From NCBI RefSeq assembly GCF_054482525.1, contig NZ_JBTHVG010000003.1: a stretch of 64,000 bases of DNA, one strand, 5' to 3'. The translations under genes and the position numbers were made by a program. The DNA comes from a plasmid. Below the pieces are notes generated by a model, which was not told the DNA's origin, did no database searches, and saw only the letters and a list, made by a program, of their open reading frames with translations. Numbering within the stretch: the first letter of the stretch is position 1; each line of letters starts with the position of its first letter. This document shows, in pieces, positions 40,910 to 42,704 of the stretch.

Positions 40910-41272
40910 TCAGGGGTTTAACGCCGGAATATTTTGCCAGGCCTCCTGCAAGGTCTGCAAGACTTCTACAAGTGATAGTGACGGCCACAGGACTGTTTCC
41001 GTCATTATCACTCCAGGTGGCTCGCACTCTACTGGTACCAGAATTAAAACAACACGAGTTCCTTTTACCTGGTAGGCAAGGTTTACTGCCGGTTGGCGGT
41101 AGGAGGCCAGTACACCCTCACCATATTGAGCAGGGTTACTTGCCCAGTTCCGCACCATTGCATACACCTGAGGCATATACCGACTATCCAGATCCCCTTT
41201 GGGCCGTCTGAACGGCACGATTTCTTCTGAGCGGTAGGTGGTCGTTGTTGTATTGGTTGTCATCTTTGTCAC
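40910..41272 (-). CDS. Hypothetical protein
   Basis: 120-aa ORF in minus-strand array. Confidence 0.35.
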   Translation of the reverse strand: MTKMTTNTTTTTYRSEEIVPFRRPKGDLDSRYMPQVYAMVRNWASNPAQYGEGVLASYRQPAVNLAYQVKGTRVVLILVPVECEPPGVIMTETVLWPSLSLVEVLQTLQEAWQNIPALNP

Positions 41273-41328: not shown

Positions 41329-41613
41329 TTATTTAAGCTGGTCATCGTCTCTGGCCAGCATAGCCCAACCATTCGACTGGTTTTCGCGGGAGTAAGGATT
41401 CATTTCAAAATAACTATCTACCGCGTCGCTGTCCGCAACAGAACTGTTGTTAGCTCTCTTTGAACCCTGAACCACTACAGCATCAACCTCTGCGGCTTTC
41501 CCGTTGCGCTGTACCAGGATTTTAACCGTCTTGGGCTTACGTCTTGCGAGCAGTTTGTTGGCGATAAAAAGCACAACAATCCAGGCCAAAAGCACGTATA
41601 AAAATTTATTCAT
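41329..41613 (-). CDS. Small membrane-anchored protein, hypothetical
   Basis: N-terminal TM; palindrome copy 164 bp upstream. Confidence 0.4.
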   Translation of the reverse strand: MNKFLYVLLAWIVVLFIANKLLARRKPKTVKILVQRNGKAAEVDAVVVQGSKRANNSSVADSDAVDSYFEMNPYSRENQSNGWAMLARDDDQLK

Positions 41614-41776
41614 AATGCCCTCCTTTGTATGTGATTATTATACCTGCTTCCATTGCAGGCCAAACAGGTTCGGTGTATGAAAAATAGACTTCTCTCCGGC
41701 GTATAGCAATCTACTTACTGATCTGTTTTCGTATCAAACTGTATGGCATAACCGAGGGGCGTACGTGGTGAGTCAG

Positions 41777-41787
41777 AAAGTTACTTT
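41777..41787. promoter_or_regulatory. AAAGT(A/T)ACTTT palindrome copy
   Basis: aGAAAGTTACTTTTCCgt; upstream of gene 41329..41613. Confidence 0.5.
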
Positions 41788-41969
41788 TCCGTAATAGTTA
41801 ATTTCAGATCCTTCTTCCAGTTACGCTTCAGTATAAAACCGATACCCTCTAATTCAGCATCCTTCACGTTTAATACGCTTCACTTTAAGGCAGGGCTTTT
41901 CGGTTGATATGAATTCTTTTTCCGGTTGCTGGACATGGGTTTCATCCTGATAGTTAAAATTGCAGGCTA

Positions 41970-42272
41970 TCAGTCACCACCACCACCTCCTCCTCCTCCT
42001 CCTCCACCGCCACCATCACAACCACCAGCTATGCTATTTTCACCATTACAATCACCTCCGAGGGGGTTCAAATGGCTGCTCCCCTGTAGATGGTGTCCTT
42101 GCCAGATCGAACCCGAACCAGCGCCTCCTGAGCGTCTTTGCTTGCCCTGAGGCAATTGTGCAGGCTCACCAGCACCGGCGGTCCCAAAAATGTCCCGGGC
42201 AATTTTATAAAGAAGGTAAAAAGGTACGCCCAGCATCATAAAAAAGATTCCTGAAAATATTACACGTTCCAT
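41970..42272 (-). CDS. Small membrane protein with C-terminal poly-glycine tract
   Basis: N-terminal TM then Gly-rich tail ending G13-D; tract encoded by the CCN repeat. Confidence 0.35.
   Translation of the reverse strand: MERVIFSGIFFMMLGVPFYLLYKIARDIFGTAGAGEPAQLPQGKQRRSGGAGSGSIWQGHHLQGSSHLNPLGGDCNGENSIAGGCDGGGGGGGGGGGGGD
41976..42030. repeat. Trinucleotide (CCN)n tract (~14 units; CCA/CCT/CCG)
   Basis: ccaccaccaccacctcctcctcctcctcctccaccgccacca read directly. Confidence 0.8.
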
Positions 42273-42704
42273 TGATGATCTCCTGTCTTGTGAGAGACCA
42301 GTTATATCAGGGTGATTCAGTATTTCCGTTTAGAAAAGAGTACTAATTTGGCCCTGTTCGATCTTAATTTGCCATCCGGGAAAAAGTCATAGGGATAGGC
42401 CTGCCAGAGTCAATAACTTCCAGTGATCTGGAGGAGACCCCGGCTCTCTGAGCCCTCATGGATGGTACGGCTTTACCCCCTGTAAACAGATTCACGTTCC
42501 GCAGGACAAACATCGACTACTGACGTCTCATATTTGCTGACGCTAATCCGACGTCTCATTGCCGTCTGCTTGTTTTCTTTAAAGGGTGTATTAGACGAAT
42601 ATCAAATCGGAATGGTAGGGGATGTGTGGGCACCATGCCCGGCCCTCTTTGAGCATCTGAGAGATTGGAGACCTAGCCGGGTAAGATAGCTACTTTCTTA
42701 CGGG

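Follow-up and report, generated by a model that had tools for sequence, protein, structure and literature searches.

The stretch of plasmid DNA analysed here, referred to as the window (64,000 nt), belongs to the backbone of an IncHI2 plasmid. Its Tra1 genes are ordered mobI-mobH(relaxase)-traD-hyp-DUF4400-S49 peptidase-NERD and are followed by a long minus-strand run of small hypothetical genes. Within this run and just past the Tra1 relaxase/coupling operon lies a 100-codon open reading frame (ORF; 41970-42272, minus strand) whose 3' end carries a glycine-coding triplet tract. A 1.1-kb segment centred on this region shows 100% identity to many conjugative plasmids of 210-290 kb from E. coli and Salmonella that are typed as IncHI2A/MOBH/MPF_F, and about 98% identity to a second group of plasmids found mostly in Enterobacter.

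The ORF is framed by unusually long intergenic regions, 432 bp on its upstream side (42273-42704) and 356 bp on its downstream side (41614-41969), with about 9-11% variable columns and thus as conserved as the ORF itself. The predicted folding of these two large regions was no better than that of shuffled sequences (z = -0.9 and -0.7) and therefore gave no support for a single-stranded DNA promoter or a structured RNA. No significant Rfam family and no consensus promoter or terminator was found in them. A permissive Rfam scan of 38-50 kb returned Mu-gpT-DE at 42270-42312 (minus strand), over the 5' untranslated region and the start codon, but at 24.4 bits for a gathering score of 49 (E = 0.05), and the hit was attributed to chance. 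In the same way, the upstream duplication of GAGACGTC is within chance expectation with its two copies, and only short, chance-like pairs of direct or inverted repeats were detected in the 40.6-47.5 kb interval. The upstream intergenic region also contains a 49-aa ORF (42364-42513) whose start codon is lost in relatives. The next downstream gene (94 aa; 41329-41613, minus strand) is of similar build, its hydrophobic N-terminal helix being accompanied by a basic patch (RRKPK) and a polar tail, and the gene at 40910-41272 (minus strand) begins with a short ACC repeat (MTKMTTNTTTTT).

Direct reading of the window establishes that the CCN/GGN tract is real and that it extends without interruption over 39 bp, i.e. 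13 units (41976-42014). On the minus strand, the sequence ...GCT GGT GGT TGT GAT leads into 13 consecutive Gly codons composed of GGT GGC GGT (42006-42014), (GGA)6 (41988-42005) and (GGT)4 (41976-41987). They are followed by the terminal Asp codon GAC (41973-41975), which encodes the last residue in every orthologue group, and by TGA. The (GGA)6 block is the unstable core of the tract, its copy number ranging from 2 to 8 in other plasmids. In the plus-strand register the 13 CCN units occupy 41977-42015, and a period-3 array was reported by TRF at 41975-42027. An earlier sequence-only reading had described a (CCN)14 repeat of 42 bp and a protein ending in Gly13; the repeat and the Gly13 run are indeed present, but a fourteenth unit is reached only by counting the terminal GAC, and an Asp comes after the run so that the listed protein ends in ...AGGCDG13D. 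The window contains a single 13-unit CCN pattern, whereas 100 dinucleotide-preserving shuffles of its sequence gave no such pattern, nor even one of 6 units. The 13 GGN codons, with (GGA)6 and (GGT)4 among them, are thus an uninterrupted short-unit tandem repeat beyond chance.

The product of the minus-strand ORF reads MERVIFSGIFF...AGGCDGGGGGGGGGGGGGD up to the stop codon and is annotated by PGAP in IncHI2 records, for instance in p14EC029b, as the hypothetical protein WP_071447784.1. A Shine-Dalgarno motif, AGGAG (42280-42284, minus strand), is placed 7 nt upstream of the ATG (42270-42272) and is invariant in all five IncHI2-type sequences aligned. Further upstream, TGATATAAC (42301-42309, minus strand), also invariant in the IncHI2-type alignment, resembles an extended -10 element and may serve as a promoter; the scan that called no consensus promoter or terminator for the ORF also demands a -35 element and so misses it. 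Codons 4-22 (42207-42263, minus strand) encode a hydrophobic, putatively transmembrane segment with a mean Kyte-Doolittle hydropathy of 2.0, and AlphaFold2 run without an alignment predicted one helix over residues 2-32 (pLDDT about 90) and disorder for the remainder (below 55). The gene product would therefore be a bitopic inner-membrane protein of about 100 aa, in which a basic juxtamembrane stretch links an N-terminal transmembrane helix to a disordered tail of about 70 residues rich in Gly, Ser, His, Asp and Cys. Neither Lys nor Arg occurs beyond Arg47, so that trypsin would release the tail as one 53-residue peptide, to which shotgun proteomics is ill suited. By the positive-inside rule, the basic residues that follow the helix suggest an N-out/C-in topology with a cytoplasmic tail. 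They are strongest in the relatives from IncHI1-type plasmids described below (net charge +2 to +5), whereas in the IncHI2 protein they (KIAR...KQRR) lie farther from the helix.

Orthologous positions in IncHI1-type plasmids were informative. The flanking 122-aa and 94-aa genes have 45-60% relatives there, and an ORF of matching architecture was found in that syntenic slot in four IncHI1-type lineages. The shared slot lies upstream of a 94/104-aa gene, a 117/119-aa gene, NERD, the S49 peptidase and DUF4400/DtrJ. In all cases the encoded protein has a hydrophobic N-terminal helix and continues through a basic patch into a low-complexity tail, whose end reads ...C(D)GGGG...D directly before the stop codon. 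These IncHI1-type ORFs of 77-95 aa, whose tail ends in GDAGGGCGGGGD, are missing from the gene tables consulted (L020:2432-2686, L021:2432-2686, L019:2913-3188, L022:2413-2688, L023:3480-3764 and L024:3480-3767). The IncHI1 protein (84 aa) reads MTHRSFVMLLNIALILYVAVCLYLCLRNKKALYRFQGGGRQ...GGDSGDAGGGCGGGGD, and that of p8025/pPSP-75c (91 aa) ends in SGGDGGCGGGGDAGGGCGGGGD; in the p8025 gene table, an overlapping out-of-frame 50-aa ORF stands in its place. A profile search retrieved further lineages that had been called by other gene finders, all ending in GDAGGG(G)CGGGGD. These calls start at an internal Met; four lineages were examined, and in IncHI1 (L020) and L024 this Met has an AGGAG of its own.

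The IncHI2 and IncHI1-type proteins are only 28-29% identical in a MAFFT alignment, and the IncHI2 protein, used as a single query, retrieved nothing but IncHI2 versions, so their presumed homology rests on synteny, architecture and the tail motif. When the four IncHI1-type lineages are compared, all differences in the last 12 codons are wobble changes, apart from one additional GGT (Gly) codon, and similarity collapses directly past the stop codon. Between two of these lineages, the indels within the ORF are of 6, 12 and 3 nt, as opposed to 1-2 nt in the flanks. Nevertheless, overall identity in such a pair is 76% for the ORF versus 77-80% for the flanks, and the mismatches by codon position (12/29/19) do not follow a coding-like pattern. 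Taken together, the Cys, the Gly run and the terminal Asp are the conserved C-terminal signature of this predicted family, the IncHI1-type end being GDAGGGCGGGGD and the R478-type IncHI2 end AGGCDG6DG5D. That such a Gly/Cys/Asp tail is common to IncHI2 proteins and to IncHI1-type ORFs missing from the gene tables consulted is a new observation.

The tract can also be read on the other strand, where an ORF with a TTG start (41926-42150, plus strand) encodes a run of 13 Pro; a second antisense ORF is His/Leu-rich. Expression of this poly-Pro protein, which the sequence-only reading had offered as an alternative, is compatible with the IncHI2 data taken by themselves, as both the minus-strand and the poly-Pro ORF stay open across all the IncHI2-type sequences compared, at low divergence. 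Outside the repeat, 12 of the 22 variable columns among five IncHI2-type sequences (at most about 10% divergent) fall at codon position 3, but the two frames have their wobble positions in common, so that this bias fits the poly-Pro frame equally well and cannot separate the two. Nor is the ORF better conserved than its surroundings in this set (8.6% variable columns versus 9.3-10.9% in the flanking intergenic regions). The poly-Pro ORF, however, has no Shine-Dalgarno motif in front of its TTG and is not annotated. Moreover, the antisense ORF of IncHI1 has different ends, and the orthologous p8025-type locus is not open in this frame and contains no poly-Pro ORF of at least 30 aa. Thirteen consecutive Pro residues would, in addition, strongly stall ribosomes. 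An expressed plus-strand gene is consequently considered very improbable. Synteny with the IncHI1-type plasmids is the decisive evidence for the predicted minus-strand coding. It is joined by the strong Shine-Dalgarno motif, the predicted N-terminal helix and the PGAP annotation, and the earlier suggestion of a small membrane protein with a Gly run, encoded on the minus strand, is thereby upheld. It is concluded that the minus-strand gene, as predicted from sequence, is real and that it is a member of an IncHI-restricted family of small proteins in which a transmembrane helix and a basic patch precede a low-complexity tail with Cys, a Gly run and Asp at its end.

Database searches connected this family to no described one. 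A Pfam search with the ORF gave nothing better than E = 0.17, and NCBIfam, PHROG, PADLOC and Pfam searches with the ORF and four neighbours returned no useful match; a Hok/Gef or other named small-toxin family was accordingly disfavoured. Sequence and profile searches of the PDB matched only the Gly linkers of engineered proteins. An exhaustive phmmer search of 1.84 billion representatives and a word-indexed homologue search both returned only IncHI2 versions, many of them frameshifted or truncated. No earlier description was found in the literature on IncHI2 glycine repeats or on polyglycine small membrane proteins. The composition of the tail (...GGCGGGG...) recalls the Gly/Cys-rich cores of TOMM-type peptides, and the ORF could in principle encode a RiPP precursor resembling that of microcin B17, with a Gly-run/Gly-Cys core that is modified and exported. 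This resemblance is limited to composition, and such a precursor is extremely improbable: no relative was found in Pfam, NCBIfam or the PDB, the annotated neighbours (small hypothetical genes, NERD and the S49 peptidase) include no cyclodehydratase- or dehydrogenase-like genes, and the N-terminus is predicted by AlphaFold2 to be a transmembrane helix and not a leader peptide.

The length of the tract differs between plasmids. Allele-specific BLAST searches were run against the 72,556 plasmids of PLSDB, of which 976 records hold the locus. Sequences retrieved for the individual alleles follow the formula GGT GGC GGT (GGA)n (GGT)4 GAC, with n = 6 in the window, 5 in pXH990_1, 4 in proteins ending in G11D (listed in 474 blocks of the index), 3 in those ending in G10D and 2 in those ending in G9D. 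An allele with n = 8 and a 1-nt loss, frameshifted by +5 nt, was present in pSCE516-1 and is possibly a sequencing error. Rarer forms are (GGT)3 GAC, giving G3D, and GGT (GGA)5 (GGT)5. Some apparent alleles, such as those with single odd residues in the run or the +1- and +5-nt versions, may likewise be sequencing errors. The 1.5-kb flanks of the n = 2-6 alleles differ by 0-1 SNPs besides a private change of the window to Gly at codon 7, so that copy number is polymorphic in whole units among otherwise identical sequences and the tract mutates much faster than by point substitution. Codon 7, at 42250, is GGA (Gly7) in the window and GTA (Val7) in most plasmids, the version of the window being found in about 80 of 975 records. 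The sequence-only reading had anticipated that such a repeat could change in length without frameshift by slipped-strand mispairing and had proposed a comparison across isolates; the (GGA)2-6 and (GGA)8 alleles bear out the variation, slippage itself being the presumed mechanism, and the length proved variable where invariance would have spoken against it.

The window tract was matched at 99% or more in 471 of these 976 records, all of them complete plasmids. A second version of the tract, interrupted by a GAC codon as in R478, was found in 425, all at 99% identity or more, and other versions in about 80. The interrupted tract contains GGA GGA GGT GAC GGA (G6-D-G5/6-D) and belongs to the older lineages, namely the R478 type, a Lelliottia plasmid and two divergent metagenomic contigs. 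Its length was 117 nt in all the matches listed, R478 included, without any length variant. By contrast, about 80 of the 551 plasmids with a pure tract (about 15%) deviate from the modal length, 85% sharing one allele. The interruption therefore goes together with stability. It would seem that the IncHI2 lineage of E. coli and Salmonella lost the interrupting GGT-GAC codons, which left a pure (GGA)n run, and that this run grows and shrinks in whole triplets, replication slippage being the most plausible mechanism. The frame would be kept throughout, and most of the proteins would end in G9 to G13, with shorter or longer runs being rare. Such behaviour is the classic one of a microsatellite born by loss of an interruption, with slippage as the likely mechanism. 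The allelic series and the contrast between interrupted and pure tracts are new.

The gene is often disrupted. An ISVsa5 (IS10-like)/Tn10-type insertion follows codon 49 in p7926H (L005:4001-5463; about 42126 in the window), and the resulting truncated 64-aa product (P0013) is encoded on 460 contigs. As the gene is cut in a common and successful sublineage, it is dispensable for plasmid persistence. In one other plasmid (GCA_041227385.1; L011:1-600), the end of an IS66-family element lies 42 nt before the ATG (about 42284-42314 in the window); this insertion removed the conserved upstream region and left the Shine-Dalgarno motif and the ORF in place.

These data bear on whether tract length is itself under selection. 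In an adaptive rheostat or contingency locus, length variation would tune the activity of the protein, for instance during host switching or conjugation. Several observations would suit such a role, namely the near-continuous series from G9 to G13, plus G3, on identical backgrounds, the wide distribution of the G11 allele, and the finding that no part of the IncHI1-type proteins is more conserved than the tail, whose length could therefore matter. On the other hand, a single modal allele dominates (471 of about 551 pure-tract plasmids), and the R478-type lineage with its 425 plasmids as well as the IncHI1-type lineages keep a fixed tract, interrupted or short, which implies that variability is not a conserved property. 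The gene also tolerates transposon disruption, and triplet units cannot switch it ON and OFF. A phase-variable contingency gene was disfavoured for the latter reason, the unit being of 3 nt and all common alleles in frame, and a selected rheostat is regarded as quite unlikely. Most likely, changes in tract length are nearly neutral and are tolerated, and they do not act as a programmed switch. The reading preferred here, and held to be probable, is that a real but dispensable minus-strand gene of the IncHI2 backbone carries at its 3' end a coding trinucleotide microsatellite whose changes in length are tolerated. In other words, it would be an ordinary coding microsatellite, a known kind of feature, in a dispensable IncHI-restricted small protein.

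Short-read assemblies also break systematically at the tract. In all, more than 650 public contigs encode 'partial' proteins of 86-94 aa that end at or in the Gly run, with 205, 136, 127, 84, 38, 38 and 23 contigs for the individual versions. Four independent contigs (L029-L032) stop at the identical base, ...GGTGGCGGTGGAGGAGGAGG, after (GGA)3GG (about 41995-42014 in the window). Length heterogeneity in cultures, of which these breaks are the only hint, and sequencing failure in G-rich DNA are both candidate causes. Two assemblies gave chimeric 'partial' proteins (P0040/P0043; L025:1760-1853; window 41092-41180), in which the tract is joined in inverted orientation to about position 41092 of the window via an imperfect microhomology of about 14 nt (TGGCGGT.GGAGG) at a contig end. 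These were set aside as being most likely an artefact of assembly or library.

The DNA that encodes the tail has a further property. The Chi octamer GCTGGTGG (42022-42029, minus strand) encodes Ala82-Gly83-Gly84 (GCT GGT GG) just before the Cys and is kept in all five orthologue lineages. It is not isolated, as the window contains 20 Chi sites for 1.7 expected and a maximum of 5 in 100 shuffles. Chi is the sole octamer among the 15 most frequent that is not AT-rich, and no GC skew that would explain the excess was found. Eleven consecutive sites are co-oriented, all on the minus strand (34185, 37286, 39098, 39865, 40735, 40862, 42022, 43645, 43919, 45113 and 48303), five of them lying antisense in the plus-strand tra genes, three in intergenic regions and three in the minus-strand small genes. 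It is the sole such cluster in about 198 kb of a reference plasmid, where one 10-kb bin holds 9 of 38 sites and the other bins 0-3. In syntenic IncHI1-type loci (L019, L020 and L022), 6-7 kb contain seven Chi sites of common orientation. Given the polarity with which Chi is recognised, the cluster would act on RecBCD coming from the mobI/relaxase side; oriT is presumed to lie upstream of mobI, as in related MOBH elements. No description of a Chi cluster on IncHI plasmids was found in the literature searched, and the embedding of the tail in it is new.

This raises the question of whether the DNA rather than the protein is conserved, i.e. whether the locus is a G-rich, Chi-containing element belonging to a dense group of co-oriented sites beside Tra1 that modulates RecBCD. 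The ORF would then be there by accident, and the Gly run would be a side effect of Chi-like GGTGG sequence. The persistence of the octamer, as codons for A-G-G, in five diverged lineages agrees with this possibility, and so do the excess of Chi in the window, the common orientation of 11 consecutive sites whatever the gene strand or coding status, and the lack of a second such cluster in about 198 kb of the plasmid. It would likewise account for an ORF that is no more conserved than its flanks and is often disrupted. Nevertheless, a Chi site covers 8 nt and explains neither the Cys-Gly-Asp motif nor the ORF. Conservation of the tail ends exactly at the stop codon, the differences in the last 12 codons are synonymous or of whole codons, and the indels of the ORF are all multiples of 3 while those of the flanks are not. 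Furthermore, the transmembrane helix, the basic patch and the tail have been kept despite about 28% identity, and a Shine-Dalgarno motif is present in both IncHI2 and IncHI1. A purely DNA-level element is thus judged unlikely, and the coding microsatellite in a small membrane protein gene stays the preferred reading; constraints from the protein and from Chi may coexist on the tail. A bolder scheme, put forward as a long shot, would combine the two. The Cys-(Gly)n-Asp end might be the working end of an unrecognised IncHI-wide small membrane protein, and its DNA might at the same time belong to a conserved, co-oriented array of Chi sites next to oriT/Tra1, by which a plasmid end exposed to RecBCD is shielded or recombined. 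Length changes in epidemic IncHI2 plasmids of E. coli and Salmonella might then tune a function in transfer or establishment.

IncHI2 plasmids are major carriers of mcr-1, mcr-9 and ESBL genes. In this context, the tract is a fast-evolving marker able to split otherwise identical backbones, and the recurrent contig breaks at it affect plasmid reconstruction and gene calling. The comparison also reveals a family of small proteins, united by a conserved Cys-Gly-Asp tail and overlooked by standard annotation in IncHI1-type plasmids, and it offers a clear case from nature in which an interruption stabilises a bacterial microsatellite. Since the gene is dispensable, the value of these observations is mainly descriptive and they will hardly surprise a specialist. 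The Chi cluster beside Tra1 is a more intriguing lead than the Gly tail.

Among known systems, a close parallel is offered by coding trinucleotide microsatellites that are stabilised by interruptions, such as CAG and CGG repeats with CAT and AGG interruptions, and by bacterial simple-sequence repeats. As in these, the pure triplet block of IncHI2 varies in whole units on identical DNA and the interrupted version is length-stable; the IncHI2 tract is, however, very short (2-8 units), it resides on a bacterial conjugative plasmid and its variation is modest. Phase-variable contingency loci, for example those of surface genes in Neisseria and Haemophilus, rely on homopolymer or tetranucleotide repeats. 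They share with the present tract a simple-sequence repeat that lies in a gene and mutates faster than by point substitution, but with the IncHI2 unit of 3 the frame is preserved, there is no ON/OFF state and non-triplet variants, such as that of pSCE516-1, are rare.

Some likeness can also be drawn to Hok/Gef type I toxins, which are small proteins with an N-terminal transmembrane helix, encoded on large plasmids among small genes and between conserved non-coding flanks. The IncHI2 protein differs from them in being about twice as long and in having a 70-residue disordered Gly-rich tail, and neither an antisense RNA nor a fold-back structure was detected. McbA, the precursor of microcin B17, contains a long Gly run and Gly-Cys motifs, both of which recall the IncHI2 tail; the two proteins have no detectable sequence relation, though, and the IncHI2 gene has no mcbBCD-like neighbours and encodes a transmembrane N-terminus in place of a leader peptide. 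As regards the Chi sites, a preprint notes in general terms that some conjugative plasmids are dense in Chi (10.1101/2021.07.08.451572). Phage P1 and these plasmids resemble the IncHI backbone in that Chi is far above the expectation from composition and non-random in placement and orientation (10.1101/2021.07.08.451572). What sets the IncHI sites apart is that they form a local, co-oriented cluster beside Tra1 and the relaxase gene, tied to the Gly tail by one octamer.
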